Assembly (NCBI GenBank): GCA_964485645.1
Contig: CAZAMA010000004.1
Location: 1 to 51,584, forward strand
Direction: 5' to 3'
Source: an uncultured Acidimicrobiaceae bacterium
Lineage (GTDB): Bacteria > Actinomycetota > Acidimicrobiia > Acidimicrobiales > Bog-793
Length of the DNA stretch: 51,584 bases
Shown: positions 8,203 through 46,563 of the stretch, piece after piece
Layout: the number at the start of each line of letters is the position of its first letter
How positions within the stretch are numbered: the stretch's first letter is position 1
Made by a program: the position numbers and the translations under genes
Notes under the pieces: model-generated
Databases searched by the model: none
Told to the model about the DNA's origin: nothing
Seen by the model: only the letters and a program-made list of their open reading frames with translations

Positions 8203-8213
8203 GCAACTACCCC

Positions 8214-9150: not shown

Positions 9151-9268
9151 GCGCTAGGGTCTAGCACCCGGTGGCCCCTGTTTCAAACCTGGCCGTGAGC
9201 CCTCCGGGTTGCTTCTGGGCCGGCATGCACGGCTACGCACGGCTGGCCGCGGCAGGAGCGGAGGCGGC

Positions 9269-10066: not shown

Positions 10067-10076
10067 ACAGTGCCGC

Positions 10077-10964: not shown

Positions 10965-10972
10965 GGCCGTCG

Positions 10973-12463: not shown

Positions 12464-12513
12464 CTGTCGGAGCGGCCGCCGGCGTCGGGGCCACGGCAAG
12501 CGCGGGCACGGCG

Positions 12514-13260: not shown

Positions 13261-13614
13261 CCCGGACATCCCGCCAGCTGCGTAATCCGCTCACGCGGCC
13301 CCGGACTCGTCGTGAGCGACCTGCCGATGACCGACCTCGCACTTCCACTGTCAGGCTCAGCGGCTCCCCCGCTCATCGGCGGAGAGGCCGGGAGGCGATC
13401 TCGTCACCGATCTCGGTTGCTGACACCCGACGAGCGCACCCGCCGCAGGCCACCGGCCGTCCGACGGTCGCCAAATCCTCGTATCGAGCCAGAGGGGGCG
13501 GGAGAAACCGTCTGGCCACCGGGGCGAGCGTGTCGGGAGGTGCCCCCCGATGGTCCACATCGGCGAGTAGCAAGCGTATCCTTCTTACACCTCGACGTCG
13601 CCGCACAGCGGCTG

Positions 13615-14196
13615 CTATCGGGCCACGAGTGAAAGATCGTGGAAACTGACCTGGAAGCCCTTGCCCTCGGGGGCGGCGCACATGGCTCCGGCCATTGCCT
13701 TCGCCTCCTGGGGCAGGTGCACGAGAGCCGCCAGCTCTTGGGCGCCCCCGTCGATCCCGTAGCGGACCTCGAGCGCATCGCCGCGCCGGGTGAGCAGCAG
13801 GGCGAGCCCTCTCATCGACACCGGAAGATCAGCCACCACCCAGCTCGAGTACTCGAACGTGACAACGGTGCTGAGGCGCATCCGGCCTTCGAAGTACTCG
13901 ACCCCGGCCTTGATCCAGTTGCACTCATCGATCCGCACCATCGCTCCCGCCTGGTCGTACTGCGCTGAATACGAGCCGAGCACCCGCATCGAGAGGTCGA
14001 ATTCCTCGGCCATCACATCCCCATAGAGGTGGCCGCTGTCGCGGACGAAGCCGTAGCCGGTGGTTCGCCAGAAGTCGGTGCCGGCGTCCGCTTTGACACG
14101 CAGCACGTCGCCGTCCTCGGACCAGCTCGCCGGTTCGTTCAGCCAGTGCACGGCATCCTCCTCGTCGGTTGCTGCTTTGGCGACACATCTCCACAA
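13615..14196 (-). CDS. DUF1349-like (concanavalin-A-like lectin/glucanase fold) protein
   Basis: WLNEPASW...DFWRTTGYGF..DSGHLYG...QYDQAGAMV..DECNWIKAGVEYF resembles the DUF1349 family as I recall it. Confidence 0.7.
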   Translation of the reverse strand: MWRCVAKAATDEEDAVHWLNEPASWSEDGDVLRVKADAGTDFWRTTGYGFVRDSGHLYGDVMAEEFDLSMRVLGSYSAQYDQAGAMVRIDECNWIKAGVEYFEGRMRLSTVVTFEYSSWVVADLPVSMRGLALLLTRRGDALEVRYGIDGGAQELAALVHLPQEAKAMAGAMCAAPEGKGFQVSFHDLSLVAR

Positions 14197-14229
14197 GCAG
14201 CTGAAGGCTACCCGGACCCGATGCTGAGA

Positions 14230-14790
14230 CTCGGTCCTGGCGGCCTATCGCGTCGGGACGGCTCTTCTCAGCCTCACCGCCTCGGCCATGAGGGCGGGGT
14301 TCACAGCGCCAGTCCGCGAGCTTTACCCCGATATCGGGCGAACGCGCCGTACCGAGCACGACTATGCCACTCCCCGGAACCGGCGCATTCGCCCGTGGCA
14401 GCCCCGGAGGGGGTCCTTCGCTCTGATGCGCGGTCGTGAGGACTGGGATTCCCAGTGTGCCCGTCCCATCACCGGGTGAGAGCGGCGCCAGTGCCCAGGT
14501 CGCCGCGCAAGTACTCGACGAAGGCCCGGAGGCTGGACAACTGGACACCGAGGGAACGGCGGTACCCGCCAGAGGTAGCGAGCCTCTGGAACTCCCCCCA
14601 GGTCACGTCAGGACCTCGTGGCGGCGGGCCTCAGTACCGACAAATACGTTCGGCCCCGCACCATTGCGCTCTCGAGCCACCAATGCACAGGGTGGACGAT
14701 GGGATCCCGAGGACGGTGCGCGGCCAGGGCTCGTCGTACAACGGGTGGTCCAGGATCGTCGGCTCCACGAGCCCCATCATGCAGCAAGGC
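14230..14790 (-). pseudogene. Possible tyrosine-recombinase (integrase) remnant, multiply frameshifted and truncated
   Basis: Minus-strand fragments in different frames: TWGEFQRLATSGGYRRSLGVQLSSLRAFVEYL (N-terminal SAM-like integrase flavour) and GIVVLGTARSPDIGVKLADW (like the TG-R box around the first catalytic Arg). No intact ORF. Confidence 0.25.
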
Positions 14791-31932: not shown

Positions 31933-33225
31933 ATGGCAACCCACACGCGATCGGACAACCCCCTGCACGGCTTGGATGTGTCCGACGTCGTCGATGAGTA
32001 CCGGCGCCGCGACCTCGCTCGCTTGAGCGATCAGCTGCTGGTCTCACTGGCAGCTCAGATAATTGGAGTGCCGCGCGCAGCGATCGCGGACGAGCGGTAC
32101 TCCTTCGTCCTGCACTCCCCGCTTGAGCTGATGGCGCGCGGCGCCCTGCTGCCGTACGTCGCCCCGGGCGAGCGCGAGCGGTCCCGGCTGCGCATCGTCT
32201 GGCTCGCCGGGAGCTACGAGTCGGGCGGTCCCCCATTGCCCGGCGCGCCTGCGCGACATTTCGACTCGCTCTCCGGCGCGGCCGCCGCCCTGGTCGACAG
32301 CATCAATCACGAAGATCTCGACGGCGTGGACGCCGCAGCGTCCTGGCTCGACAGACGAGCTCGCCCCGATCAGCTGATGGCAGTCCTCGCCGAGGAGACA
32401 CTCGACCGGCTGTCTGCGGCCGGGCACGGGAACATCTACCTGGCACTCCTCACTCGCACCCAACCACGCGGGCTGCCGTCGCAGATGCTTCGCCATCTCG
32501 CCCGCGAGCTCGCCAAGCGACCCAGCAGGCGTGTCGAGGTTCCTGCGGCCCGGTCAACTTCGGACTCGAGGGCGCCGACTCGGCTGTACGACTCTCTCGT
32601 CGCGACCCGCGTGATTGGTCCCGCGCCCTATGGAGGCATCGCGGCGATGGTCGAACACGCCCAGGAACACAGCGCGCTAAGCGGTCTCCTAGGTGACGAC
32701 GGCAGCTTCGCTGCCCCCGAGGTGACTCCATCAGAGCTCGTGGGATTCGCTGCCCATGCGATGCTCCAGGGACCGTCGTCGGCGGCCCCATACGGATGGA
32801 CGCACTGCCTCACCCTGGCCCAGGCAGCGCTCGTCGTCGGGCACGCCTGCTCCAGACCTCTGCGGGCCATCTATGTCGCCTGTGCCTACATGGCCGCGCA
32901 CTGGGCCAGCTTCGGCCAAGGCAGCGTCGCCTGCGACTGGGTCCCAGAGCCCGTCAAGGAGAGCGTCGCGGAGGCGATGCAGATGGGCCCCGAGCACGCC
33001 GCAGCGGCCGCCTGGCACGCGCCGAGCGGCGCCGCCACGATCACCTTGCTCGCCACTTCCGCCGCACGTGCCCACGACGCCCATCTCGTGAAGTACACCC
33101 TGGCATGCCTCGACGCGGCGGCCGCCGATCAGGACCACGCCGCGCTCTACCTCGCAGCCGCGGCCCATCTGCACGCCTGGTGGCTCCAGAACCCGGATCC
33201 CTCTGACCCACTCCGCAACAGCTGA
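31933..33225 (+). CDS. Hypothetical protein (430 aa), probable SoxR target
   Basis: Long ORF with strong GC3 bias, directly behind the SoxR box. I recognise no family motif. Confidence 0.65.
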   Translation: MATHTRSDNPLHGLDVSDVVDEYRRRDLARLSDQLLVSLAAQIIGVPRAAIADERYSFVLHSPLELMARGALLPYVAPGERERSRLRIVWLAGSYESGGPPLPGAPARHFDSLSGAAAALVDSINHEDLDGVDAAASWLDRRARPDQLMAVLAEETLDRLSAAGHGNIYLALLTRTQPRGLPSQMLRHLARELAKRPSRRVEVPAARSTSDSRAPTRLYDSLVATRVIGPAPYGGIAAMVEHAQEHSALSGLLGDDGSFAAPEVTPSELVGFAAHAMLQGPSSAAPYGWTHCLTLAQAALVVGHACSRPLRAIYVACAYMAAHWASFGQGSVACDWVPEPVKESVAEAMQMGPEHAAAAAWHAPSGAATITLLATSAARAHDAHLVKYTLACLDAAAADQDHAALYLAAAAHLHAWWLQNPDPSDPLRNS

Positions 33226-33249
33226 CGGCGCGGGCGGCTCGCGCTCACC

Positions 33250-34209
33250 TCATTTCACCGCGCCGGCGAGCATGCCACGGACGAAGTAGCGCTGAAACGC
33301 CAAGAAGACGATGAGGGGGACGACGATGGAAACCATCGACCCCGTCGAAATGATCCAGAAGTTGTTTGCGAGGGTACGCTCCTGGTCGTACAGGAACAAG
33401 GTGAGCGGTACATGTGGATCACCTCCTAGAAACACCAGCGCCACAAGCAAGTCATTCCACACCCATATGAACTGAAAGATTGCCAACGACGCCGCGGAGG
33501 CCACGCCTAGAGGGACCACGACCCGGCGAAACAGCAACCACTCACCAGCTCCGTCGATACGGCCGGATTCTATCAGTGCCATGGGGATACCGGTAAAGAA
33601 GTTGCGCATCAAAAAGACGCCAAATGGCAGCCCAAATGCCACGTGAAAGATCACGACACCGGTGATAGTTCCAAATGGATTCCAACCGGTGAGGTTTCCC
33701 AGGTCCCTATAGAGTGAAGACACCGGAATGAGCGCTACCTGGAGCGGCACGACCATCAGGCCGACGATAGTCAGAAAGACGGCATTGCGACCCCGCCACC
33801 GCCCGAACACGATCGAATACGCCGTGAAACTCGAGATAACAGTAACAAAGAATGTCGCCGGGATGCTGATCTCGAGCGATGTCCTGAGCGAGTCGAGGAC
33901 ACCTCCCGGCGCGAAGCCCGACGGCACCCCACCGCCGAGTGACGTAGACAGCCCGCCGGAGAAGAGCTCCTTGTAGTTGGCGAGCGTAAGCTGGGAGGGG
34001 GCGATGAAGACCTGCCACCACCCAGACACTTCGAAGAGCCCGGCTGGGCGGAACGAGATGATCAGCATGGACACGCTCGGTACGAGCCAGAACAACGCGA
34101 TCATGCCCAGCACTATGTTGATGATCAGTCGCGAAGGCCTGAATCGCCGCAGGAGCCGCATTGAGCGCCGGACCGCCGATGGCGTCCCGCCGATGGCAGA
34201 AGCCGTCAT
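33250..34209 (-). CDS. Carbohydrate ABC transporter permease (MalG-like, CUT1)
   Basis: Start at the ATG at 34209 (MTASAIGG..), which overlaps the upstream stop as ATGA. EAA-type loop ESGRIDGAGEWLLFRRVVVP. The track ORF extension to 34590 is rejected. Confidence 0.9.
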   Translation of the reverse strand: MTASAIGGTPSAVRRSMRLLRRFRPSRLIINIVLGMIALFWLVPSVSMLIISFRPAGLFEVSGWWQVFIAPSQLTLANYKELFSGGLSTSLGGGVPSGFAPGGVLDSLRTSLEISIPATFFVTVISSFTAYSIVFGRWRGRNAVFLTIVGLMVVPLQVALIPVSSLYRDLGNLTGWNPFGTITGVVIFHVAFGLPFGVFLMRNFFTGIPMALIESGRIDGAGEWLLFRRVVVPLGVASAASLAIFQFIWVWNDLLVALVFLGGDPHVPLTLFLYDQERTLANNFWIISTGSMVSIVVPLIVFLAFQRYFVRGMLAGAVK

Positions 34210-35669
34210 TTTCCACTGATCCTTTTCAGGTTGAACAGCATCGCGGGGACGACGAGTATGAACAAGATGACCGCGAGCGCGCTCGCGAGACCGGTATGGA
34301 CGCCACCCCCGAAGCCCAGGTAGTAAACGTCGGATGCGAGGGTGCTGGCCTGGCCCCCTGGTTCGGAGGCGTCGATGCCAAGATTGATGACGATATCGAA
34401 GACCTTGAGCACGGTGATGACCATGGTCACGAACACGACGGTCAGCACCGGAGCCAACATGGGCATCGTGACGCGTCGGAAGGTCTGCCACTCGGTGCCC
34501 CCGTCCACCCTGGCCGCCTCGAGCGTCTCGCGGTCGAGTGCAGCCAGCCCGGCTGCGACGATCACCATCGTGAAACCCGCCCAGATCCACAGATACGCCA
34601 GGATCATTGAGATGTCGATGAGCGGTACGCTGAGCAGCGCCTGCGCCGTCTGGCTGAGACTGCTGGTGGGAGTCACCGACTGCGGCCCGAGCCAGAACGT
34701 GCCGGTATAGCCCGGCTGGAAGTTGGATGCCTCGATCGCCACTCGAAACGCTCCCCCGCCGACTTTCGGGAAGCTGAACTGCCCATTGGCCGATGTCGTC
34801 GTGGTAGCTACAGACTTGCCGGCGCTGTTGAGCAACTCGAGGTGCAGGTTGGGAAACCCACCCTCACCCGGGAGCACGGCAGAGGTATCGGTCGGGTTGG
34901 ATGCCGAGAAGTCCCGCCATACCAAGCCGGATATCGCCCCCGCCGAGGCGACGGGCTTGCGGGCCGGACGGGCTCCGAGCACCGTCAGCGTGGCCGGGCT
35001 GATACCGGTCAGGCCCATGCGTATCGTTTGGCCGGCGTCCACCCTAGCGGTGCTCTCGATGGTTCCACCTGGACCGGCGACCGCGCCGCTCGTGGCAAGT
35101 GAAGCCGCCGTCTGGCCGGCTGCCAGTGGGTAGGCGCCGGGCGGGTGAAACCAGTCGTCTACCGTCTGGATTATCGCGTTCATGACTCCGACGTGCGGAT
35201 CGAGCTGGAAGATCTGTGTAAAGACCAGGGACGAAGCAGTCACACTGAAGACAACTGGCAGGAAGATGACCGTCTTGAACGCGGTTGACCACCGAATGCG
35301 CTCGGACAACACCGCAAGCACCAGGCCTAGCACTGTCACGACGAGCGGAAAGACGACGACCCATATGACATTATTCCGTAAGGCAATGAGTGTATCGGCA
35401 GTCGAGAACAGGGACCTATAATTGGAGAACCCGACCGGCCTTGTATCAGTTCCGTTATAGAAGCTGTAACGGACGGTTTCGATAGCAGGATATATAACTA
35501 TTGCCACAAGTAGGATCGCGCCTGGCACCAGAAATACAAGGGATCTCAGATGCTGGACGATGCCGATCCTGCGCCCAGATCTGGCTCCGGACCCATCGTC
35601 GATCGGGGCTTCTTGTGGAGAGACGACTACTGCCATCTTCACCGATCTTTCGACGAAGGACCGGGGCAT
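34206..35669 (-). CDS. Carbohydrate ABC transporter permease (MalF-like) with a ~170-aa extracytoplasmic insert
   Basis: TM helices and EAARVDGGTEWQTFRRVTMP are present. Residues ~175-345 form an inserted soluble domain with an SdrD-B/Cna-B-like pattern. An alternative start is at 35636. Confidence 0.87.
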   Translation of the reverse strand: MPRSFVERSVKMAVVVSPQEAPIDDGSGARSGRRIGIVQHLRSLVFLVPGAILLVAIVIYPAIETVRYSFYNGTDTRPVGFSNYRSLFSTADTLIALRNNVIWVVVFPLVVTVLGLVLAVLSERIRWSTAFKTVIFLPVVFSVTASSLVFTQIFQLDPHVGVMNAIIQTVDDWFHPPGAYPLAAGQTAASLATSGAVAGPGGTIESTARVDAGQTIRMGLTGISPATLTVLGARPARKPVASAGAISGLVWRDFSASNPTDTSAVLPGEGGFPNLHLELLNSAGKSVATTTTSANGQFSFPKVGGGAFRVAIEASNFQPGYTGTFWLGPQSVTPTSSLSQTAQALLSVPLIDISMILAYLWIWAGFTMVIVAAGLAALDRETLEAARVDGGTEWQTFRRVTMPMLAPVLTVVFVTMVITVLKVFDIVINLGIDASEPGGQASTLASDVYYLGFGGGVHTGLASALAVILFILVVPAMLFNLKRISGK

Positions 35670-35742
35670 GGCCTGAACGAGCCAACCACGCCCCGGTCCT
35701 TTATCCGAGGACTATCGCTCCTGTTACGGAGCGGACTGCCAG

Positions 35743-37185
35743 CTAATGACCCAGCGCCGCGGTGGCCTGAGCTTGCATCGTCTTTTCGATCGAAGCAATA
35801 CTGCCTTTACTGGGGTTCTTCACGAAGTTGAGCATGTCCTGCCACATACTTGGCTCCCAGCTTCCTTGCAGGTCGTCGAGGCTGAAGACAAAGCTCGTGG
35901 CAGTCTGCAGTTCGTGCGCGTCAGCTCTCGTGACCGCGTCGGGATAAGACGAGAGTGGCACCTTCTTGTTAGGTGATGCGAACCCACCGAGGTGTGCCCA
36001 TATCTCGCCGGCCTCGGGACTACCCAGGTATTTGACAAGCGCCTTGGCTGCCGCCGTGGGCTTGAGCAGCATCGCCACGTCCCCAGCACCTTGGATTGCG
36101 GAGTTGTTCCTCGTGTCGCCGGCCGGGGCGGGAAACGGGAAGAAGTTGTAGCAGGGGGTGTCAGCGGGGTTGGCCGTACACTTTTTGCCGCCCGCTCCCT
36201 TGGTTCCCGCCGTGTAGTTGGTGGAGTTGGCAGTGATCTCGGAGACGACGAAGTCCGCCTCGATCACCATGGCCGCCTGCGGCATGGTTCCCACCTTGGG
36301 GAAGACCTTGTCCACACATTCGGGGTAGCCGTTGGAAAGAGCTCCTTTCGTCCCGCCGAGCAGGTAGGCGGGGTGGCCAACCAACTGGGCAAGGGTGTCG
36401 AAGGCCCTCGTCACAGTCGGACTCGTCCACGCGATGTTGTGGGCGGCCAGCTTGTTGTAGTCGACCGCGCCGGCAGTCTTCAGGTACACGTTCTGCCAAA
36501 GGTCCGCCACTGGCCAACCGATGTCGGTGCAAAGGGAGAACGGTGAGATTCCCGACGCCCTCAGTGTCGCCGCGTCAGCGAGCATCTGTTGCCACGTCTT
36601 CGGCGTGGTCTTGATGCCAGCCGCTGCGAACTCAGCAGGGTTGTACCAGACCGTGTTCTTGTTCGCGCCCTTGAACCAGACGCCGTAAAGCTTGTGATTA
36701 TAGGTGACGAGGTTGTTCCACGCTGCTCCGTAGTCGGCGGTCTCCTTCCCGATGACCGGCCCGAGCGGCTGGATGGCCCCTTTCTTGGCCAACGCGAGCA
36801 CCGTCCCAGGGTCCGGCACGAGGGCTACCTGGGGAGGGGCTCCGCCCGCGACCGCGGCATCGATCGCGGTGTCCATGTTGCTTCCCTTGCCGCTGTAGTT
36901 CACTTTGACGCCTGTCTGGGCTTCAAACGGTGCCAACACGGCCTCGAAGTCGTTCTGCTCGGTACTCGTCCATTCGGCCCAGATGGACAACGAGCCCCCG
37001 ATGTGCGCGGGGTTCGGCTTGAGGGCCGGAGCGCGTGTGGTCGCTGCAGAGCTGACGACCGCCGTTCCGAGCATCATCAGCCCAGCGATACCTGCCACCG
37101 AGACGACCTTCAATGTCCGCCATGCCGCTGGCCGTCCGCTTGACTTGGAGATCGTCAGATCTCCCCGCTTAGACGTTGACTTCAT
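35743..37185 (-). CDS. Carbohydrate ABC transporter substrate-binding protein (family 1 SBP)
   Basis: The ATG at 37185 is preceded by GGGGAG. Signal sequence followed by a family-1 SBP-like sequence. First gene of the operon. Confidence 0.9.
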   Translation of the reverse strand: MKSTSKRGDLTISKSSGRPAAWRTLKVVSVAGIAGLMMLGTAVVSSAATTRAPALKPNPAHIGGSLSIWAEWTSTEQNDFEAVLAPFEAQTGVKVNYSGKGSNMDTAIDAAVAGGAPPQVALVPDPGTVLALAKKGAIQPLGPVIGKETADYGAAWNNLVTYNHKLYGVWFKGANKNTVWYNPAEFAAAGIKTTPKTWQQMLADAATLRASGISPFSLCTDIGWPVADLWQNVYLKTAGAVDYNKLAAHNIAWTSPTVTRAFDTLAQLVGHPAYLLGGTKGALSNGYPECVDKVFPKVGTMPQAAMVIEADFVVSEITANSTNYTAGTKGAGGKKCTANPADTPCYNFFPFPAPAGDTRNNSAIQGAGDVAMLLKPTAAAKALVKYLGSPEAGEIWAHLGGFASPNKKVPLSSYPDAVTRADAHELQTATSFVFSLDDLQGSWEPSMWQDMLNFVKNPSKGSIASIEKTMQAQATAALGH

Positions 37186-37700
37186 AATCTCCCCTGTCCT
37201 TTCTCTTGTCGACTCCCGGCTGCCAAGTACCATCGGTCCGCGCACTCATAGCTGGTCTTCCGGCGCGGGCCGTCTGGTCGCGCCGGCGGGCGGACGGAGG
37301 AGCGCCGCGAGCACAACGGCGCGTCGTCCGTCCCTGGGGGCAGAGCACCGGGGCTGGTGGCCGGCCGGATCGGAAAGCGGTCGGTCGTCGGGCGGTCCCC
37401 TGCGAGACGTGAGGCCGGTCGCTCGTGGCCGCACTACGCTCCGACTCCCCAGCTCTTTTCTCGTCGTCATTGACAAGCCCCACCCACTTCCGATGCCTAT
37501 CGCTGCCGAGGTCGAGCTCGCGCTCGCGCAGGCCCTGGCACGGTATCGCCAGTAATGGCCAGAGCGCAAGGGCGGTCGCCGATCTTGTTCGGCCTCACTG
37601 TCCCCTCCTTGTGGCTCCGGCGCCCGCCATCCGCGGCGTGGCCTGGGCCCCATCGCATCCGCAGCGCCTCCAGCTCCCGGCACCGCATCGTCGCGCGTCG

Positions 37701-38262
37701 GTGAGAGACCACGGCGAGAACAACGGTTTGCCGACGATGTACGACGTGGCGCGCCCTGGGGCCTGTCCATTGCAACGGCCTCACGCGCGCTAAACGACCT
37801 TGGCAGACTTTGCCCTGAGACCCGAGCGCCGGTCCTGGTTGCCATCGCGGCTTTCGGCTATGTCCCAGATGTGACGGCCCGGAGCCTGAGCTCGGGCTCG
37901 ACGGCAACGATCGGGTTTCATCTGGTCGACCGAGCTCAGGAATCTCTCGTCGCCGGCCAACGCAATGTTGCGGGAAAGCACGAGGACGGCCTCTTCCAGC
38001 ACGACAAGGGAGATGCTGGGCGGCACCGACGCGCGCGCGAGGAGTGCTCGATCTCGGTCCCTCAGCGGTGCGTCGCGACCGGGATCGACGACATCGTCTT
38101 CTCCCGCTTCACGCGGCCCGCTCTCACGACAGTCCGCCAGCCCGCGGACGAGCTCGGGTCTTTGACGATCGGGACGATCCTCGACGCCATTCGCGGAAGC
38201 TTGCGGCAGGTGCGCGACCTCGTGCTGCCGACTGAGCTCGTGGTTCGCCAGAGCTGTGGCTG
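37701..38262 (+). pseudogene. LacI-family regulator pseudogene (frameshift in the HTH plus large internal deletion)
   Basis: PTMYDVARPG in one frame continues after a +1 shift as LSIATASRALN...ETRAPVLVAIAAFGYVPDVTARSL..TIGF. It then jumps to the C-terminal blocks SVPQRCVATGIDDIVFSRFTRPALTTVRQP...LVVRQSCG. About 560 nt remain, against about 1 kb expected. Confidence 0.7.
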
Positions 38263-38263
38263 C

Positions 38264-39928
38264 TTACGCCCACTCAACCGGCGGACGCGGCAGCAGGAAT
38301 TCGACCAGCTGCTGCGACGAGCCCGAGGAACTCGCGAACGTGGAGACCTCGTCGGCCACCTCGGTTACCTCGGCGAGGAAGCTCTCATGGGCGCCCTGGG
38401 CCGGGTCCTCGACTGTCGACTCGGCGTAAAGGACGACAAAGCGAGCAAGGCGCTGATCGGGTTTCTTTCTGAGCACCCGCCCCATCCGCTGGATCATCTG
38501 GCGACGTGAGCTGCTGGCAGCAAGGATGATTGCGAGGTCCGCCTCGGGGACGTCGATGCCTTCGTCGAGCACGTTCGGCGCCGAGATCACGGTGAGCTCA
38601 CCGTCGCGGAAGCGCCGGAGCACTTCGCGGCGATCCCCCATCGGGACATGGGAGTGGACGACACCGGCCCGCAGGCCTCGAGCAGCCAGGACCGATTGCA
38701 CACGCTCGGCGACAGCTATGGAACGCGTGAACACGATCGAACGGGCGGCCGCCGCCAGGGCGGGTGCCAGCGCGCGAGCGGTTCGGATCTTGGCGGGCGT
38801 ATCGGCCAACAGGCGACGGCGCTCGATCAGAAGGCCAAGGTACGCGCGGGCTTCGCTGGCACCGTCCGCTTCGGCTCCGGTGCCAGCTGCCAGCAGCTTC
38901 AAGGCCCGGATGAACTGGGCGAAGGAGTCGGTCGGCAGCTCGTAGTGCTCCATCAACCTGACGAGGCGGACACCCAGATCTGCCGTGATGTCGTCGTAGC
39001 GAGATCGCTCTTCCGACAGCAGGGCGACACCGACCAAGGCAACGCAAAAGCGTGCGGTGACTCCGTCGTCGACGGCCCGCCGGTACCCCATCTGAAAGCA
39101 CGTGCGGCCGAAGTAGGGCTGCAGCCAGTCGAGGTGCCCGTCGTCGTCGCGCGCGTAGGTCGCACTCAGACCGAGCCGGCGCTCGAAGCGCGGGTCGAGC
39201 ACGAGGCGGTTCATCGGGCTTGCATATCGATGACACTCGTCGGCAACAAGCAGCCCACCGCGGCGGCTCACGCCGAGATCGGTCTCCCGCAGGCTGTTCA
39301 CCACAGCGACGACGACGTCGTGATCGACAAAGCTCGCAGTCTCACCGCCACCGAGACACCCGATCGAGTAACCCGGCGGGACAAGGGGCGACACGTGGCG
39401 GCGCCACTGATGCATCAAGTCTACCGTCGGGACAACCACGAGCACGTGGCCTCTGTCGCCCAACTCGTCGACCGCCGACGCAATCCCGAGCATCGTCTTG
39501 CCCGACCCGGTGACCGCTTCGACTACTCCCCGGCGCTGCGCGCAAGCCCAGTTGTCGAGAGCGTCGCGCTGCCACTCATAAAGGCGCGAGCGGTCAAACC
39601 TGAGTGGCGCGTTCTTGGCCGTTCGGACCACCGGCGGCGCGCCGGGCCGATCATCGGCGACGAACCACCACCTCGGCGGCTCCTCCCGGTCGCATCGAAA
39701 CCCCTCCCGGCCGTCGAACAGCGCCAAGGTGATCCGCTTCACGCCCCGGGATGACTTGTCTGCACGCCCGTCGACCCCGAGCGCGGACGCGAGCTCGGCG
39801 ACAGTTAGGCCGGGCCGCTCCGCAAGCACGGCGCGGATGTCGTCGACAAGCACATCCTCACTCTCCGCTGCTTGGCTCGGCGTTCCACCAACTCGCGGGA
39901 GGATTCGCATTCGGCTCTGCGTCCTCAA
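38264..39928 (-). CDS. SF2 DEAD/DEAH (DECH) helicase, ResIII/XPB-like, with an N-terminal winged-helix-like domain (gene E of the candidate system)
   Basis: Motif I AVTGSGKT, Ia VVVPTVDLMHQW, II LLVADECH, III LGLSAT, V VLDEGIDVPE, VI QMIQRMGRVLR. N-terminal LTVAELASALGV... An alternative GTG start lies at 39853. Confidence 0.9.
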   Translation of the reverse strand: MRTQSRMRILPRVGGTPSQAAESEDVLVDDIRAVLAERPGLTVAELASALGVDGRADKSSRGVKRITLALFDGREGFRCDREEPPRWWFVADDRPGAPPVVRTAKNAPLRFDRSRLYEWQRDALDNWACAQRRGVVEAVTGSGKTMLGIASAVDELGDRGHVLVVVPTVDLMHQWRRHVSPLVPPGYSIGCLGGGETASFVDHDVVVAVVNSLRETDLGVSRRGGLLVADECHRYASPMNRLVLDPRFERRLGLSATYARDDDGHLDWLQPYFGRTCFQMGYRRAVDDGVTARFCVALVGVALLSEERSRYDDITADLGVRLVRLMEHYELPTDSFAQFIRALKLLAAGTGAEADGASEARAYLGLLIERRRLLADTPAKIRTARALAPALAAAARSIVFTRSIAVAERVQSVLAARGLRAGVVHSHVPMGDRREVLRRFRDGELTVISAPNVLDEGIDVPEADLAIILAASSSRRQMIQRMGRVLRKKPDQRLARFVVLYAESTVEDPAQGAHESFLAEVTEVADEVSTFASSSGSSQQLVEFLLPRPPVEWA

Positions 39929-41261
39929 TGAAGGTTCCGCGGGCGTCGCCGGTGACAGAGTCAGGGCCAGGACCCTCTAAATCTGCATCTTCGCTCAGAT
40001 CCACCACGAGGGTACCGGCCTCGATCTCAGGTTCGTAGGTCGGGTCGAGGCGTCGTAGATCCCACTCGTTGATCCACGCCCGCACGTACTGGCGCATACG
40101 GTTGGACGGCAGCCGCTCGAGACCGGACACCGGAGGTGGGTCCCAGCCGAAGGCTTCACCGTGAATCTCCCGCAACCGGCTGTAGGTGCGGTCGAGCTCC
40201 TCCTGGGCAGGGGGCTGAAGCTTTACCTGTTCATGGCCGATGATGCGCATCCCCGTCTCGGCCAGGGACGCAAGCACCTCGTCGGTGGCAGATCCGCTCG
40301 CACGCAATCTCTGGGGAATGAGCACGTTGTCGTTCTTTCCCACAAGCACTTGGGTCTCATAGTCGTCGACCGTGGCGAACACGGCACCAATAGGCGCACC
40401 GGGATCGTCGCGATCTCCGCGAACCCAGCGAGCAATCTCCGCATACGACCTCGCGCGCTGATTGATGCTGTAACGGCCGATCAGCTCGACCTCGTCGAAC
40501 AGGACGATCCAACCTCTAAAGCCAGCCGCCCGTACAAGCCTCGACAGGAAGCGGAACCGCTGGCGCGACAGATCCGCCTCCCGCACACCCGCGATCCGAT
40601 ACGAAGAGCCGGCGCCGTGCTCACGAAGACGGCGCCGGATATCTGGCACCGAGAGCTTGTCCCCGGCCCAGAACCTGATGATGCGGTCCGAAAGCTCCTC
40701 GTCACCATGGGCGTACTCATAGAGGTAGAGAGTGGCGGCAAACTGCTTGTCCACCGGCGCATCGTCTCCGTGCACCCACCGATAGATATCGCGATACTCC
40801 GGAGAGTCGAGATCGATCGCCGCGGTGATCTCGTCGATTGCCGACCCAGCACGGCCGGGCACCCGGGCTTCGTCGATGGCGGCTCTGAAGACCTTGGATG
40901 GGTCATGCAGTGGTGTCTCCTTGGAGATGGTCACCTTCGAGACCACGAAAGACTCGCTGAGCGCGATGTTCGCTAGGTGCTCGAGCACGTGGCTCTTGCC
41001 GCTGCCCCAGCCACCACCGATAACGACGGCCCTGGCACTGGGCCGAGACGATGAGGTGACAAGTGAGGCCGCGACTCCTGACGGGGGAGCAAAGGAGCCG
41101 TCTCCCCGAGAACCAATCTCGTCCAGGATGCCGGCAAAGCGATCCTCCACGCCGATCTGCATCGAGCCGAGCTCGACAACGGCGTCCCGGTTCGGTACAC
41201 CGGCCCGCAAAGCTTCAAGTGCCCGGCGCGCCCTTACCCCCCGCGAGGTCTCGATCGTCAC
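39858..41261 (-). CDS. P-loop ATPase resembling the DUF2791/BrxD type (gene D)
   Basis: ARRALEALRAGVPNRDAV..., Walker A VIGGGWGSGKSHVL, Walker B-like WIVLFDEVE. The GTG start overlaps the upstream stop (GTGA). The family call is from memory of the consensus and was not searched. Confidence 0.82.
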   Translation of the reverse strand: MTIETSRGVRARRALEALRAGVPNRDAVVELGSMQIGVEDRFAGILDEIGSRGDGSFAPPSGVAASLVTSSSRPSARAVVIGGGWGSGKSHVLEHLANIALSESFVVSKVTISKETPLHDPSKVFRAAIDEARVPGRAGSAIDEITAAIDLDSPEYRDIYRWVHGDDAPVDKQFAATLYLYEYAHGDEELSDRIIRFWAGDKLSVPDIRRRLREHGAGSSYRIAGVREADLSRQRFRFLSRLVRAAGFRGWIVLFDEVELIGRYSINQRARSYAEIARWVRGDRDDPGAPIGAVFATVDDYETQVLVGKNDNVLIPQRLRASGSATDEVLASLAETGMRIIGHEQVKLQPPAQEELDRTYSRLREIHGEAFGWDPPPVSGLERLPSNRMRQYVRAWINEWDLRRLDPTYEPEIEAGTLVVDLSEDADLEGPGPDSVTGDARGTFIEDAEPNANPPASWWNAEPSSGE

Positions 41262-42220
41262 ACGACCACCGCCTCGCGGCCGATCCGGACGAGGGAGGAG
41301 AACGGATTGTCACGGCGGCGGTCTCTTATCTCGTCGAAGATACGCAGCTTCAAAGCCTGATAGGCATCGAGGCCCCGAAGCTCGTCGCTAAGCAGCTCCG
41401 GAGCCGCGATCACGAGCACGAAGCAGCGGGCGAGCTCGTCGGTGCTGTCGATCAGCTGGCGCAACACTTCGTATGCGTCGAGCAGCCCGAGCCTCGTGTA
41501 GTACTGACCCACCCGCTCTTCGACAGGTGGTCGCCGCGCGACGCCAAGACGACGGGCGTCGATCACGACGAGCAGTCCCGCGTGTCCGTTCGTTGCCAGC
41601 CAGTGCGGCAGTGAGAAGAGCATCTGGCGGGCGTTGTGACGGGCGATCCTGCGGTAGATGAGGGACGACTTGAGCGCCGACATCTGGCGGAGGTCCCCGC
41701 GCAGCCACTCCAGGAGAGCGGTGTGCTCGGCGTCGCTCACCTGTCCAGTGCGAAAAGCCGCCTGGCACAAGCGCAGCATGGCCATGCGGAACTCCTGCAC
41801 CATGTCGAAGTCCTTGAAGATGCGCCGCTGCAGCTCCCGGTCGACGTCTCTCTTGAGCTCGCGGGTATCGGTCCGGTAATGGGCGGCCAGCACATCAAGC
41901 GTCGGGACGTCATCAGTCGGCGGAGGAAAGCCAGCCGCAGCCGTCGCGCCACGAAGCGCAGTGGCCGCCAGCCCATCCCAATCGATCTGTCGAGCCACTT
42001 CGAAGAAGATCTGCTCGATGAGGTGCACGCGGGTCGTGGCCGCGTCCAGCACTGCGACCTCGTAGCCAGAGTCCCTGCCTTGCGCGACTGCCTCGTCTCT
42101 AAGGCTGGGCGCCGCCAAATCGTCAGCCACCGCGAACTTGACGGCGCATCCTCCGCGGTCGACATAGCCGCGGAGGTACTCCCGACCAAGAAAGCTCGCG
42201 TACTCCTCCGGCCCTATCAT
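41258..42220 (-). CDS. Hypothetical protein, possible Walker-A-less paralog of the adjacent ATPase (gene C)
   Basis: 320 aa with ATGA overlaps at both ends. GGCAVKFAVADD sits where a P-loop would be, and LLVVIDARRL resembles a degenerate Walker B. Confidence 0.72.
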   Translation of the reverse strand: MIGPEEYASFLGREYLRGYVDRGGCAVKFAVADDLAAPSLRDEAVAQGRDSGYEVAVLDAATTRVHLIEQIFFEVARQIDWDGLAATALRGATAAAGFPPPTDDVPTLDVLAAHYRTDTRELKRDVDRELQRRIFKDFDMVQEFRMAMLRLCQAAFRTGQVSDAEHTALLEWLRGDLRQMSALKSSLIYRRIARHNARQMLFSLPHWLATNGHAGLLVVIDARRLGVARRPPVEERVGQYYTRLGLLDAYEVLRQLIDSTDELARCFVLVIAAPELLSDELRGLDAYQALKLRIFDEIRDRRRDNPFSSLVRIGREAVVV

Positions 42221-43017
42221 GCCCCGGGCTCCTCGAAGCTGATACCGGCGTAGTCCTTCGCCTGCCCGTTGCGGGTGACAGTTCGAAGCACGCCGCCCGA
42301 TCGCGTGAGAGCACTCGCGGGAAGGCTCATCTTGCGGCCCTTCTTCGTGGTGACGTGGCCACTCTGGTCGAGCAGGTAGATGTCACGGGCAAACTCCGGT
42401 CGCGTGTACTCTCGGGCGCTCCCAGGCATGATCGTGAGCACGTTGTAGACGTCCACGAGTTTGGCGGCTGCGCCTGGTCGCATCGATTTGGATGCGATGA
42501 CAAAGTCGTACGCGAGGGCGAGCGACTCGATGAACGATTCGTGCTTGAATTTGGGCTCGCGCCGCTGCGCGGCGCTGAGCGTTGCGACCACGACCGAGGG
42601 CCGGATGCGGCGATCCTTCTTCTTGTCGATCACCACCGAGGAGTCCCCAGACGACACCTGCACTATGACCGGGTAGCAGAGGATGCGGTCATCGGACTCG
42701 AAGGCTTTCACTCCCTCCTCGGCCGCGGCCGCCAGCAGCTCCTTTGCGTACTCGCCAGAGAAGAACCAATCCTCGACGTCAAAGCGCCACCCGTGCCTCA
42801 ACTGGTCCGCCGCCACGACGACGTCTGCAGCCAGCTGCTGAGCCGCGGCGAGAACCTGCGGTAGGTCTCGGACCGTCCCGTTCTCTGCAGCCGCCTTGGC
42901 CCGCTTTGCCACACGCGTCAAAGAGGCAGCCGCCTGCAGCAACGCGGTGGCTTCGGACTCGAGGGCGGCGAGGGCTCCTTCGAGACTGCCGTGGTGCGTC
43001 GTGGGCCCGTCAATCAT
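42217..43017 (-). CDS. Hypothetical protein with an N-terminal coiled-coil-like Ala-rich segment (gene B)
   Basis: The ATG at 43017 is preceded by GAGGAG and overlaps the gene A stop by 8 nt. The track start at 43032 is also possible. No recognisable motif. Confidence 0.72.
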   Translation of the reverse strand: MIDGPTTHHGSLEGALAALESEATALLQAAASLTRVAKRAKAAAENGTVRDLPQVLAAAQQLAADVVVAADQLRHGWRFDVEDWFFSGEYAKELLAAAAEEGVKAFESDDRILCYPVIVQVSSGDSSVVIDKKKDRRIRPSVVVATLSAAQRREPKFKHESFIESLALAYDFVIASKSMRPGAAAKLVDVYNVLTIMPGSAREYTRPEFARDIYLLDQSGHVTTKKGRKMSLPASALTRSGGVLRTVTRNGQAKDYAGISFEEPGA

Positions 43018-45013
43018 TCTTGTTCTCCTCATGTGCTATGGATAGTTCAAGCGTGCTCGAAGCTGTCGGAGGCTCGTGATTGCCAGCTACGAAAGACGCG
43101 GCGTCGCCTTGCGCAGGCGCGGATTGCAGTTCGACGACCACCTCACCTTCGAGCGCGAAGCCGAGCAACAAGACGTCGCCGAGACGGGCCCCGACCCCCA
43201 TCGCGACGGGGCGAAGCGGCCCCCGCGAGGGCTCCGGTCCGTCATTGGCGAGCATCACCGGCCCAAATCGGCTCGAGAACGTGCGCCGATGTTGGAAGCC
43301 TATATCGAGAGCGCGCACCAGATCTTCGGGTACCGACGAGTCAGCCCCGCGCATCAGATCGGAATCGACCGTCACCACCAGCCACGCTCGGCCGGGGGCA
43401 GCGCCCTGCGCTTCGACTATGACGGTCTCGGGATGGGAGGAGCCAGTAGCGGGATGATCGGGCGCGAGCATCGCCATCCCCGGGAGACCCAGCTGCTCCC
43501 CGAGATCTGCTCTTGGTGTAAGAAGCTGAGCCCCGGTGGTGAGCTCTGCTTGCGGTGCCGGCACGCGAGCGACGAAGCCTTCGGTCGCCTGACGGTGGGA
43601 CCTGGCTCTGTCGGAACGCTCGGATGCTCGCTTCGCGACCTTGGCAGTCGGGCCGGTCGGCCAGCTCGACAGTTCGTGGGCGTCTTTCGCAGCTCGCCGG
43701 AAGCGGCGAGCCCGAAGCGCGCGCTCCACCTCCCCTTGCGCGACCCTGCGCCCTGCGCGACCTAGGAGCTCATGACACTCGTCGGCTCTGAGGGCCCGAC
43801 CATGAGCATCGAGCAACCGTTCGAGGACATCGACAAGGGGTCCTGACAGCAAGACAGCGACGTCATCGTCGACGACGACGGCACCGCAAGCCTCGAGCCA
43901 CGAAGTGACGGCTCCGTCATTGACGCCGAGAGCTCTCAACTCACCTGAGAGCGCGACGAGAGACACGACGCCCCCGTCTTCGGAGAGCACCTCTTTGGTC
44001 CGCGCCACGACTTCGTTCGGTCGCACGCCAATCCAACCCGGGCAGCGAGCGACCGGCTCGAAGGGACCGGCAAGCCAGAGCACCAACGCTGCCGCCTCCG
44101 AACTCGCCCCATTCGAAGCCGCCGGGCCAAGTCCGTGCAGCGCCAACTCGTCATCGGCCGTACGCCGTGGCGTCACCCTGCCAAGCGAGCACCCAACGCG
44201 CCGGACCAACCACCCAAGGGGTGCGGGAGCCGCGGCGAGCTCTTCCCGCACCTGCGCGGCCGCACGCTCCCGCCGCTGGGCCACCCGAGTGGAAGTGATA
44301 CCGAGCTCTGCTGCCAGCTCCACCAAGCTTCGAGAAGCCTCGCAAGCAAGCTCCGTGCGAACGAAGATCGATCGGTCCAGATCGTCGCTGATACCACTTA
44401 TAAGCTGGCAGATCGCTCCGGCATGCACCAGCGCCCACGGAGCGGCACTGGCAAGGATCCGCCGAGCCGTAGCCGCGATCTGATAGTGATCGCCGAGATA
44501 CTCGGCGGTGGCACCAGGAGATGCGAGAGGTGGCGATGTCGCCGCGGAAACTGCCGATTCCAGCAGCGCCTCGAGCACCGGCTGTTCGGGGCGGCGTCGT
44601 TCGTGCCAAAGAAGGACCGCCAGATCGCTCGCGTCGTTGTCTTCGACGGTGGCGCCGAGCCCTATCAAGCTCCTCTCAAGACAGGCACCGAGGATGGTGA
44701 CGGACCCCGCCGGCCCAAGATCGGGCACCGCGAGAAGCTGCGCCACGGTGATGCCCAGAAGCTCCGACCACCGCTCGTAGCCTGCTCGCCCCAGCCGTGC
44801 CCTTGCGCGCTGGTCGAGACTGCGCGGACCGAGACAGCCATCGGGCACGAGCCGGGCGGGCGGGAAAATCTCGCGCAAGGCGCGCTGATTGAGAGACTGT
44901 CGATCCCAGCCGAGGCCGAGAGCACTCTCGAAGTAGCCCCGCAGCTGCTGGCGCCGCTTGGGTTCAGTGACGTCACCCAGCTCAGCGCGAGAGAGCGGGT
45001 CAGGGTGGCTCAT
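43010..45013 (-). CDS. Large protein with an RpoA-CTD-like HhH and a sigma-70 region-4-like HTH (gene A)
   Basis: RARARLGRAGYERWSELLGITVAQLLAVPDLGPAGSVTILGACLE is HhH-like. SRSLVELAAELGITSTRVAQRRERAAAQVREEL is sigma r4.2-like. Preferred start is the ATG at 45013 after a purine-rich stretch; the track ORF extends to 45151. Confidence 0.72.
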   Translation of the reverse strand: MSHPDPLSRAELGDVTEPKRRQQLRGYFESALGLGWDRQSLNQRALREIFPPARLVPDGCLGPRSLDQRARARLGRAGYERWSELLGITVAQLLAVPDLGPAGSVTILGACLERSLIGLGATVEDNDASDLAVLLWHERRRPEQPVLEALLESAVSAATSPPLASPGATAEYLGDHYQIAATARRILASAAPWALVHAGAICQLISGISDDLDRSIFVRTELACEASRSLVELAAELGITSTRVAQRRERAAAQVREELAAAPAPLGWLVRRVGCSLGRVTPRRTADDELALHGLGPAASNGASSEAAALVLWLAGPFEPVARCPGWIGVRPNEVVARTKEVLSEDGGVVSLVALSGELRALGVNDGAVTSWLEACGAVVVDDDVAVLLSGPLVDVLERLLDAHGRALRADECHELLGRAGRRVAQGEVERALRARRFRRAAKDAHELSSWPTGPTAKVAKRASERSDRARSHRQATEGFVARVPAPQAELTTGAQLLTPRADLGEQLGLPGMAMLAPDHPATGSSHPETVIVEAQGAAPGRAWLVVTVDSDLMRGADSSVPEDLVRALDIGFQHRRTFSSRFGPVMLANDGPEPSRGPLRPVAMGVGARLGDVLLLGFALEGEVVVELQSAPAQGDAASFVAGNHEPPTASSTLELSIAHEENKND

Positions 45014-45275
45014 GTCCCCTTCGGTCTCGAGCTTGACCATGAGGAGGTCGCGGCCCTCGCCGCTGAGCGCGTCGCCAGCGGCGAAGGCGTCAGCGAAACG
45101 AAACGATTGAGCGCAATCTCGCGCTGGCCCGCCTGCCCCTCGCATCATCATCGTCGATGACGATACATTGCGGCTGTGTCTACAGCGGACCCGCGTCGAC
45201 TAGTCGCACGGGCAATGCTTGGAGGACCCGGGTGCCTGCGGTCGTGCCGGGCATGGCGCGTGACAGGATGGCATC

Positions 45276-45464
45276 GTGAGCGACGTGTACGACGACCTGC
45301 CCGCAGTCGAACGACCAGATCCATTCCTGGCCCCTGACGCGGCCGACGAGGTCTCCCTTGACAGCGAGATCGACTTCGACGACGAGCAGGACCGAGATCA
45401 GCTGCCACTCGACGTGGTCGAAGCGATAGAGGCCGGGGTCCTGCTCGACGACCCCGAGCAGTGA
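45276..45464 (+). CDS. Small, highly acidic protein (62 aa)
   Basis: GTG start preceded by AGGA. About one third of residues are Asp/Glu. Ends ..EAGVLLDDPEQ. Divergent from gene A. Confidence 0.45.
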   Translation: MSDVYDDLPAVERPDPFLAPDAADEVSLDSEIDFDDEQDRDQLPLDVVEAIEAGVLLDDPEQ

Positions 45465-45513
45465 GTCGAGGAAACCGACACGCGCGGATGACGAGCTAGT
45501 CACTCGGAAGCGC

Positions 45514-46563
45514 TCAGCTTGGACAGGCTGCCTCCAGCGCCGCGATGGCCGCGCCCCTCGCACCGGCCATGTCAAGGTCGGGAACCAGCCCGAACACAGC
45601 CTTGGCCGCCGACTCGGCCCGAAGTGTCGTGCTCTTCCTCACAGTCGCGAGGAACCATTCCTGGAAGGCCTCGCCCGTCTCCACGACGCCTCCCCCGACG
45701 AAGTAGGCGTCGGCGTCGAGAAGGTTCGCGGCGATGGTGAACAGCCGACCGAGAGCCGCGGCCTGCTGGCCGAATATCGCGAGGGCCATCGGGTCGCCCG
45801 CCTCGGCGTAGGAGCGGATCGCCCGCGCCGCTCGCGACACTGGCTGCACGGACGCGAGCTCGTGGTCGGCAAAGCGCGACAGGAAGTAGGGCAACAAATT
45901 GCGCTCGATACCGGTGAGCGAAGCGACGCTCTCCGCGTCGCCGGCCAGTCCGCAGTTGCACTTTGGAACCGGCTGGCCGGGCTCGAGCAGGCCCTCCAGC
46001 GGAATGCTGACGTGGCCCAGCTCACCAGCCTGGCCGCTCGTCCCCTCGACGACCCTCCCCCACTGCACGATCCCGCCCCCGAGGCCGGTCCCCACGATCG
46101 CAGACACCGACGAGCGGGTGAGCCGATCTTCGCCAAAGTGGAGGCGATGGGCGTACAGCGCCGCGGCATTGCCGTCGTTGCTGTAGATCACAGGCAGGGC
46201 CAGCCTCGCCTCGAGGTGCCCGCGCAGATCGAAACCCCGCCACCCTGGGTCCTCGAAGTTGGCGGAGCCCTCCACCGAGAGGACGCCATCGGAGCTCGCA
46301 GGCCCCGGGCTGTCGAGTCCGACGGCACATACCCGCTCTCTCGGGATCCCCGTCACGGCGAGTGCCGTTTCGAGTGCCTCCTCGAGCGCGTCCAGTCCCG
46401 CGGAGGTACCCTCCCGCACGCGGCTTGGGATCTCGACCATCTCCTCGATGAGGAACCGCCCCGAACGGTCCAGCACCGTCACGTTGTTGCACGTCCCACC
46501 GTTGTCGATGCCGACGACGACGGACTCGCCAAATCCGAGCGACCCTTTGCCTGCTGGGCTCAC
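45514..46563 (-). CDS. ROK-family sugar kinase (glucokinase-like)
   Basis: VVGIDNGGT, GELGHVSI, and the zinc motif CNCGLAGDAES. Confidence 0.9.
   Translation of the reverse strand: MSPAGKGSLGFGESVVVGIDNGGTCNNVTVLDRSGRFLIEEMVEIPSRVREGTSAGLDALEEALETALAVTGIPRERVCAVGLDSPGPASSDGVLSVEGSANFEDPGWRGFDLRGHLEARLALPVIYSNDGNAAALYAHRLHFGEDRLTRSSVSAIVGTGLGGGIVQWGRVVEGTSGQAGELGHVSIPLEGLLEPGQPVPKCNCGLAGDAESVASLTGIERNLLPYFLSRFADHELASVQPVSRAARAIRSYAEAGDPMALAIFGQQAAALGRLFTIAANLLDADAYFVGGGVVETGEAFQEWFLATVRKSTTLRAESAAKAVFGLVPDLDMAGARGAAIAALEAACPS

Follow-up and report, generated by a model that had tools for sequence, protein, structure and literature searches.

A candidate defence or conflict operon pairing a degenerate and an intact BrxD-family protein with a predicted nuclease-free XPB/PbeA-type helicase in an uncultured Acidimicrobiaceae bacterium

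Five adjacent minus-strand genes, here called A to E, were analyzed in a 51,584-nt stretch of DNA from an uncultured Acidimicrobiaceae bacterium (contig CAZAMA010000004.1, assembly GCA_964485645.1; the whole stretch is referred to as the window). An earlier note on this DNA had proposed that the five genes make up an undescribed defence or conflict system. Judging from its context, we consider that this cassette probably is such a system, most likely acting against phages or other invading DNA. The five genes are a translationally coupled operon whose conserved core is the triad B-C-D, with A and E as add-ons. They encode a predicted multi-domain DNA-binding protein (A), a member of a large unannotated family (B), a predicted inactive and a predicted active BrxD-family protein (C and D) and a superfamily 2 (SF2) helicase of the XPB/PbeA type that appears to lack a nuclease (E). 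The open reading frames (ORFs), with protein lengths in amino acids (aa), and the leader of the operon are as follows.

43010-45151, minus strand: gene A, 713 aa (from the ORF list and the sequence)
42217-43017, minus strand: gene B, 266 aa
41258-42220, minus strand: gene C, 320 aa
39858-41261, minus strand: gene D, 467 aa
38264-39853, minus strand: gene E, 529 aa from the GTG at 39853; the longest ORF extends to 39928
45152-45218, minus strand: non-coding leader upstream of A, reaching the outer edge of the stretch common to the nearest relative, locus L005 (blastn)

Direct reading of the sequence confirmed both the positions of the five ORFs and the way they are chained to one another. The stop codon of A (TGA, 43012-43010) lies downstream of the B start codon (ATG at 43017), giving an 8-nt overlap (ATGATTGA, read from the sequence), and a GAGGAG at 43030-43025 precedes the B start by 7 nt. 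B and C share an ATGA (42220-42217), also with a GAGGAG upstream, and C and D share a GTGA (41261-41258). The D stop codon ends at 39858, and the in-frame GTG for E at 39853 leaves a 4-nt gap. All four junctions were thus as the earlier note had described them, and its view of the genes as one compact, translationally coupled unit was upheld. The 266-aa start of B is consistent with the lengths of its homologues (262 to 266 aa), and the 713-aa start of A has the support of close relatives, in which the peptide ahead of the database-called M38 is conserved. The G+C content at third codon positions (GC3) of genes A to E was 0.70 to 0.79, somewhat below that of most neighbouring genes (0.80 to 0.89).

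Both C and D belong to the Pfam family PF10923 (BrxC_BrxD, formerly DUF2791), which comprises ORC/Cdc6-type AAA+ proteins. D matched with an E-value of 1.9e-17 (63.8 bits) and C with 3e-15 (56.5 bits, profile positions 135-329), both past the gathering threshold of 22.2 bits, and in each related locus consulted the homologues carried the same annotation. The PADLOC model for BrxD was matched by D (2.3e-12) and by C (2.5e-10), and D also matched SngB (6e-8). The cut-off of the BREX (bacteriophage exclusion) type 2 BrxD equivalog (NCBIfam NF033438, 350 bits) was not reached by either protein (D, 45.9 bits; C, 37.7 bits). In D, the Walker A motif GGGWGSGKS (K89) and the Walker B motif FDEVE (D256/E257) are intact and conserved in 71 sequences, and the N-terminal motif reads ALEALRAGVPNRDAV. 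These intact motifs suggest that D is an active BrxD-family AAA+ ATPase, in line with the class to which the earlier note had assigned it. C has a degenerate P-loop (GGxAxKF) and a Walker B motif reduced to hhhhD-A; because this degeneracy is conserved in 76 sequences, C is taken to be an inactive BrxD-family paralogue and is predicted to be catalytically dead. The note had counted C, along with A and B, as a protein without any recognizable catalytic motif; this fails for C, and only A and B were left without a family.

A direct BLASTP comparison of C with D gave no significant similarity, so only the shared Pfam profile relates them, and D had no relative among the sequences of the PDB. In locus L092, from a metagenome-assembled genome (MAG) of Nitrospirota, B is accompanied by a single 789-aa protein (9105-11474, plus strand) in which a C-like N-terminal part is fused to a D-like part: identity is 42% to C over residues 3-315 and likewise 42% to D over residues 335-773. 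By the Rosetta-stone argument, this fusion indicates that C and D probably interact physically. The B homologue at this locus is 312 aa long as called.

E contains the Pfam domains ResIII, Helicase_C and ERCC3_RAD25_C, and its motifs VTGSGKT, DECH (D205/E206), SAT and QRMGRV are conserved in 66 sequences. It is thus the complete SF2 helicase that the earlier note had described, and the Pfam results foreseen there (PF10923 for D, ResIII and Helicase_C for E) were obtained. Among defence families, E matched the PADLOC model for PbeA (5e-61), covering model positions 248-625 of 672 only, and the NCBIfam model TIGR04095, 'DNA phosphorothioation system restriction enzyme' (2.9e-44). In the PDB, it matched the archaeal helicase XPBII (6p4f, 9e-38, residues 82-471). 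Its score against the XPB equivalog NF045503 was 92 bits in two stretches, with a cut-off of 610 that was not reached, indicating kinship at the family level only, and matches to the NCBIfam models repair_heli_XPB, UvrB and RadD were weak. In PbeA, an HKD (PLD) nuclease is joined to an SF2 helicase (PMC10853773). The first ~110 residues of E are too short for the HKD nuclease of PbeA and unrelated to it, and no nuclease domain was found in E; the N-terminal ~85 residues are poorly conserved, and the N-terminal module matched no family. E is therefore best described as a predicted XPB/PbeA-type SF2 double-stranded DNA translocase or helicase without the HKD nuclease of PbeA, and it looks like a PbeA that shed its nuclease. 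The earlier note had drawn ties to BREX and Shango; with E being specifically PbeA/XPB-like, the cassette is tied to Pbe systems instead.

The protein encoded by A is the fastest evolving of the five. Its median identity to homologues was 34%, versus 60% for B, 63% for C, 65% for D and 52% for E (tblastn with the window proteins), corresponding to a divergence about twice as fast as that of B to D, and it matched no family in PADLOC, PHROG or NCBIfam. An AlphaFold model built from 16 sequences, with a predicted local distance difference test score (pLDDT) of 76, divides it into an N-terminal helical region found in close relatives only, a helix-turn-helix (HTH), three modules, a linker and a C-terminal beta domain. 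Two of these parts have candidate matches among known folds.

44243-44353, minus strand: sigma-70 region-4-like HTH, residues 267-303 of the 713-aa ORF of A
43121-43393, minus strand: B3-like pseudobarrel at the C terminus of A, residues ~587-677 of the 713-aa ORF

The HTH matched Pfam Sigma70_r4 with an E-value of 0.0027, under the gathering score, and Foldseek related it to sigma4 domains with probabilities of 0.97 to 0.99; R252, Q255, R259 and A260 (P0121 numbering) are invariant in the homologue alignment. The three successive helix/strand modules show a winged-helix-like pattern in the model, with no confirming fold match, and a disordered linker of ~85 residues is modelled before the C-terminal domain. 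The strands of this last domain (551-639 in P0121 numbering) were modelled with a pLDDT of 85 to 90. Its best structural neighbours in Foldseek, at least the top 20, were all B3 domains (plant TEM1, VAL1, FUS3 and ARF; probability 0.97 to 1.0), and the recognition domain of BfiI ranked 26 and 29, the probabilities of the B3 and BfiI matches together ranging from 0.8 to 1.0. A motif in this domain, RRTFSSR.GP, is invariant among the aligned homologues. A is thus predicted, from the model, to be a multi-domain protein with HTH modules and a C-terminal B3-like DNA-binding barrel. To the HTH protein of the earlier note, the B3-like barrel and the fast evolution are to be added. Rapid evolution combined with a B3-like barrel is typical of specificity or sensor subunits, and rapidly evolving partners of ORC/Cdc6 ATPases with multiple winged HTH (wHTH) domains are known in conflict systems (PMC10853773). 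In locus L087, a 333-aa protein (8003-9004, plus strand) that matches the PADLOC models PDC-M38A (3e-16) and PD-Lambda-5_A (2.5e-6) occupies the slot of A directly upstream of B, which suggests that this slot accommodates different partners.

B represents a large unnamed family. At least 593 homologues were found, every one annotated as 'hypothetical', and an exhaustive profile search delimited a B-like family of 811 clusters at 50% identity, almost all of them stand-alone proteins of 255 to 270 aa. B had no match in Pfam, PADLOC, NCBIfam or PHROG, and nothing meaningful was obtained for the family from Pfam at E-values up to 5 (17 members) or from a sequence profile against the PDB. The AlphaFold model (pLDDT 87) consists of a long helical hairpin, a five-strand beta-meander and a helical/winged C-terminal part, which bears an LPAS(A/T)(L/G)TR motif; Foldseek detected no fold match for it in the PDB or BFVD. 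E13, R139, Y170, T195, D212, Y256 and the LPAS-TGTR loop are conserved across the wide family, and in that alignment the conserved residues form no recognizable catalytic or nuclease-like set. Invariant E93, D109, D125, D131 and K134 on the helix and beta-meander of close homologues had raised the idea of a hidden PD-(D/E)xK nuclease. This was rejected, as D109, D125, D131 and K134 are not conserved in the wide family and no nuclease fold was matched.

With the B profile, relatives were found in 94 of 185,579 species-level genomes with the patterns used, and 80 of the 94 genomes were retrieved, nearly all of them MAGs of Acidimicrobiia, Dormibacterota and other Actinomycetota. Complete genomes with the block include OZ255627.1 and OZ255630.1. 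The order A-B-C-D-E was kept in every locus long enough to show it. All five genes were present in 58 loci (tblastn with the window proteins), which puts the shared gene order beyond chance, and B, C and D were each detected in at least 78 of 84 loci. The flanks of these loci are unrelated: 149 flank proteins from 38 loci fell into 140 different Pfam families, the commonest being PIN toxins (10), UvrD/GajB-like helicases (4), DUF4143/AAA_14 ATPases (4) and AbiEii (2). Transposases, integrases, recombinases or toxin-antitoxin pairs adjoin several copies, with a transposase or recombinase at L001, L004, L090, L091 and L093. Since the same order recurs amid unrelated flanks, the block is accessory and not part of a core genome, as the earlier note had supposed, and it is a horizontally moving cassette. 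The computational checks that the note had named as able to refute its proposal (for assignment to a known system, universal synteny and lack of co-occurrence) all came out in favour of the proposal.

The nearest relative, in L005, aligned at 7743-14752 to window positions 38267-45218 with 90.4% nt identity (blastn, ~7.0 kb), and the similarity ended on both sides. Because it stops there, the limits of the cassette are placed at the E stop codon and ~67 nt upstream of A. The surroundings differ in L005, with MazF, DinB/MST, GNAT and a ribbon-helix-helix (RHH) antitoxin upstream. A stretch of 7.6 kb in L005 (1-7743), which encodes MazF, DinB/MST, SIMPL, a hydrolase, GNAT, an RHH antitoxin and a peptidase S51 fragment, separates the cassette from a homologue of window positions 45232-45369, and a ROK-like fragment lies downstream of E there; the region has therefore been rearranged. 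No terminal inverted or direct repeats defining the cassette ends, no att sites and no tRNA gene were found in the window. A 21-nt inverted repeat (90% complementary) does bracket the cassette, with one arm at 38342-38362 in the 3' end of E and the other at 45336-45356, 185 nt upstream of A. As the end of an element it was rejected, the sequence of the outer arm lying 7.6 kb from the cassette in L005, and the repeat is probably due to chance. Relatives of B were absent from viral contigs, phage genomes and plasmid collections, the viral scan consisting of a single peptide pattern of limited sensitivity, and A to D had no match in PHROG.

More distant members of the B family, 30 to 50% identical to each other, were examined for their context in nine places. 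In L085 (9001-16069; duplicate L086), B-C-D form one co-oriented operon with PbeA (5e-207), a small ORF and PbeC (5e-116). This PbeA is full-length (model positions 3-678), nuclease part included, and the same island also carries WYL, Metallophos with an LmuB-like SMC ATPase and an MkoA-like helicase. In L093 (8001-15632), the triad is convergent with PbeA, a small ORF and PbeC, next to a Pfam dnd_assoc_4 protein. Pbe is an experimentally shown defence system (PMC6459918). Because A is missing from five loci, E is missing from L084 (despite ~6 kb of downstream flank) and from L081 (2.6 kb), and triads occur alone, A and E are add-ons and B-C-D is the conserved core.

The A-E set was not assigned to any known system by PADLOC v2 (2023) and NCBIfam release 20 (2026), neither of which holds a model for A or B, and full-text literature searches returned no paper describing this gene set. 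That the cassette falls outside the described systems, as the earlier note had anticipated, thus holds with PADLOC v2. Its statement that PglX, PglZ, BrxC and TerB are absent likewise held for the cassette and for the 35 other window ORFs that were scanned. With regard to BREX of any type, neither a PglX/BrxX methyltransferase nor the PAPS reductase of type 4 was found in A to E, and no PglX model was among the families matched by the other window ORFs; PglZ was found in neither set. BrxC/PglY is also absent: C and D match the shared PF10923 domain only, there is no protein of BrxC length, and no PADLOC BrxC match was listed. PglW is absent as well. The new 'BREX-related' systems of a 2026 paper on BREX diversity are centred on DUF499, unlike the cassette.

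The systems closest to the cassette in their working are the BrxD-BrxHI dyad, Shango and Pbe, and it is a member of none of them. In type 2 BREX, BrxD and BrxHI form a closely linked dyad that has been proposed to act as a helicase loader with its helicase (PMC12839542). The cassette likewise encodes a PF10923 ATPase directly beside an SF2 helicase, with no evident nuclease in the pair, but its helicase is XPB/PbeA-type and not Lhr/Ski2-like as BrxHI is, and it adds a second, inactive BrxD paralogue (C) and two extra families (A and B). Shango (SngABC) also combines an ATPase (SngB) with an SF2 helicase (SngC), and the SngB model matches C and D weakly. To our knowledge, Shango has no identified nuclease and its mechanism is unknown. 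It differs from the cassette in having three genes rather than five, and no match to the TerB family (TerB, TerB_N, TerB_C) was found among A to E at E <= 0.1, so there is no SngA. The similarities themselves are limited, with D matching SngB at 30 bits in two short stretches and E matching SngC at 27 bits over residues 396-510, the C-terminal helicase lobe, only. PbeABCD, one of the systems centred on CxC ABC ATPases, has been reported to stop viral DNA from replicating while leaving it undegraded (PMC6459918). The helicase core of E is PbeA-like, and some complete Pbe loci contain or adjoin distant B-C-D triads. However, E has no N-terminal HKD nuclease, its match beginning at position 248 of the PbeA model; PbeB, PbeC (the CxC ABC ATPase) and PbeD/DndE are absent from the cassette, and neither PbeC, PbeD/DndE nor dnd genes were found in the other window ORFs.

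Two further comparisons concern single proteins. E aligns to residues 82-471 of archaeal XPBII, the partner of Bax1. XPB has an RED motif after motif III, and E has R-D-D at this place. Unlike XPBII-Bax1, the cassette encodes no Bax1-like nuclease, and a different N-terminal module takes the place of the XPB damage-recognition domain. For A, the comparison is with BfiI-type readers, in which a B3-like pseudobarrel serves as the DNA-reading domain; the predicted B3-like domain of A, whose fold matches include BfiI, would read DNA in a system with an SF2-type NTPase. EcoRII and NgoAVII/CglI are also restriction enzymes with B3-like readers. The B3-like domain of A, however, carries no PLD or PD-(D/E)xK nuclease, several HTH modules are added in A, and the cassette has no cognate methyltransferase. 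Among systems that combine an AAA+ ATPase and an SF2 helicase with no obvious nuclease, the cassette is a credible candidate for a new, uncatalogued member, distinguished by a degenerate/intact BrxD pair, a large unannotated family and a link between BrxD-type proteins and Pbe.

If the cassette is a defence system, it could work as follows. A, possibly with B, would bind particular DNA sequences or structures, and the C/D ATPase would assemble there in an ATP-dependent manner to load or activate E, in the way of a helicase loader. E would then translocate on the DNA, displacing or stalling the replication or transcription machinery, and the invader would be kept from propagating with its DNA left uncut, as has been reported for PbeABCD and BREX. 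Our confidence in this specific sequence of steps is considerably lower than in a defence role as such; it is plausible in view of the loader proposal for BrxD-BrxHI (PMC12839542), the multi-wHTH partners of ORC/Cdc6 ATPases (PMC10853773) and the replication block by Pbe (PMC6459918). We would also suggest, tentatively and with doubts of our own, that B and the degenerate/intact BrxD-type pair C/D form an unrecognized, widespread and self-contained sensing/loading module (811 clusters, several phyla) that joins different motors: none, a nuclease-free XPB/PbeA-type translocase or a complete Pbe. In its five-gene form, this module might confer immunity without a nuclease or DNA modification, with foreign DNA singled out by the reader A and neutralized by motor activity alone.

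Several observations weigh against a defence role or against parts of this mechanism. The cassette shows no recognizable nuclease, NADase, protease or membrane effector, and it encodes no modification enzyme, which leaves the discrimination between self and non-self unexplained. The triad B-C-D has no helicase with it in four of the nine distant places (L087, with its duplicate L088, L089, L090 and L091), so helicase loading is not the whole story, and these helicase-less triads contain no effector either. Within the clade of the window cassette itself, five loci (L006, L058, L065, L068 and L084) lack A although each has an upstream flank longer than 3.9 kb; L058 and L065 were read directly. 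The B3 match of A is weak, with E-values of 0.04 to 0.8, a TM score to the target of 0.5 to 0.59, a root mean square deviation of 4 to 5 Å, a model built from few sequences and no support from sequence profiles; the weak E-values are attributed to the query being a long multi-domain model. At ~60% identity between phyla, B, C and D are more conserved than is usual for proteins of defence systems. Raw counts suggest no more than a modest enrichment of the flanks in toxin-antitoxin and defence genes. Finally, the wider window is metabolic, contains no other recognized defence system and is not a defence island.

Three other explanations were weighed. The cassette could be a stripped-down, modification-dependent module of the Pbe/Dnd type, in which B-C-D-E, with or without A, needs phosphorothioation or methylation genes elsewhere in the genome and spares modified self DNA; it would then still serve defence, as a variant of a known system and not autonomously. 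The best defence-family matches of E, PbeA and TIGR04095, fit this explanation, as does the position of distant B-C-D triads in or next to complete PbeA/PbeC loci, and Xiong et al., who found no dnd genes near 58% of PbeAC pairs, suggested that PbeAC may be paired with other modifications (PMC6459918). However, no dnd, ssp or methyltransferase gene was found in the cassette or the 35 other window ORFs, and the commonest flank families of the 38 loci included no recurrent modification gene. With PbeB, PbeC and PbeD absent as well, and E lacking the HKD domain that defines PbeA (PMC10853773), we regard this explanation as unlikely. It is also rather improbable that the cassette is an accessory module for DNA repair or replication restart, in which an ORC/Cdc6-type loader and partners that bind DNA would bring in an XPB-like helicase, of the kind active in nucleotide excision repair, where DNA is damaged or stalled. 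Occurrence is patchy, with 94 of 185,579 species genomes by the patterns used, and the contexts always differ; the fast divergence of A is atypical for repair factors, and Pbe systems, toxin-antitoxin genes and transposases are found in association with the core. Although E is closest, among solved structures, to archaeal XPB repair helicases and weakly matches repair models, it scores far under the XPB equivalog cut-off and has no Bax1-like nuclease partner; the high conservation of B, C and D and the metabolic neighbourhood in the window would nevertheless suit a repair function.

The ORC/Cdc6-clade AAA+ proteins also include TnsC, MuB and IstB, and the clade has been linked to transposon ATPases (PMC10853773), so the cassette might instead serve to maintain or transpose a selfish mobile element. 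Its occurrence at different genomic sites, including the ~7.0 kb at 90% identity in the different context of L005, and the transposases or recombinases adjoining five of the copies agree with this. On the other hand, the conserved block contains no transposase, integrase or relaxase, the adjacent transposases come from different families, and terminal repeats are lacking, the only bracketing repeat not being conserved in position. Given also that the window has no tRNA gene and that viral contigs (scanned with a single peptide pattern), phage genomes and plasmid collections yielded no relative, we consider a selfish element very improbable, and a defence or conflict system remains the reading that we favour.

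If the cassette is indeed an immune system, it would add a family missing from PADLOC v2 and NCBIfam 2026, and one whose Actinomycetota and Dormibacterota hosts are mostly uncultured and have been little studied. It would provide a simpler setting for a question shared by BREX type 2, Shango and Pbe, namely, the role of BrxD-type ATPases beside helicases, and for asking how DNA is excluded without being cut, with five small proteins, a degenerate/intact ATPase pair, a C-D fusion and a nuclease-free motor to work with. Two unannotated families, A and B, the latter large, would also gain a function. Among candidate systems, the cassette stands out for its dead/live BrxD pair, its large unannotated partner family and the link of a BrxD-type module to Pbe.

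Within the window, a sugar ABC transporter and a ROK kinase are encoded on either side of the cassette, and the genes at its flanks are as follows.

37871-~38260, plus strand: C-terminal fragment of a LacI-family regulator (Pfam Peripla_BP_3, 8.6e-13, profile positions 77-167 of 167)
45514-46563: ROK gene

The decayed LacI gene and the ROK gene that the earlier note had placed on either side were thus recovered. The LacI fragment ends where the stop codon of E lies, and the N-terminal part of the regulator was absent from the two upstream ORFs scanned (36905-37555 and 37425-37793). Between ROK and A, a 131-aa ORF (45180-45575, minus strand) with a coding-like GC3 of 0.79 and no Pfam or PHROG match is a putative gene, part of which is 88% identical at the nt level to L005 1-138. 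Further away, a transposase of the Mutator family (438-1823, minus strand; Pfam, 1e-31) has 64.5% nt identity to the transposase beside the cassette in L001 (5717-6813). One of the 35 other window ORFs, more than ~7 kb from the cassette, matched the PADLOC models for DruK/Cas4 PD-(D/E)xK nucleases at ~1e-13, and three or four matched mad3, AriA and mad8, which we guess are probably cross-hits from ABC-type ATPases. The G+C content dips to 0.58 to 0.64 at 33000-36000, over the sugar ABC transporter genes, compared to ~0.67 to 0.70 elsewhere, and the permease ORF at 34206-35669 carries an unusual CarboxypepD_reg/SdrD_B-like segment preceding its BPD_transp_1 domain.

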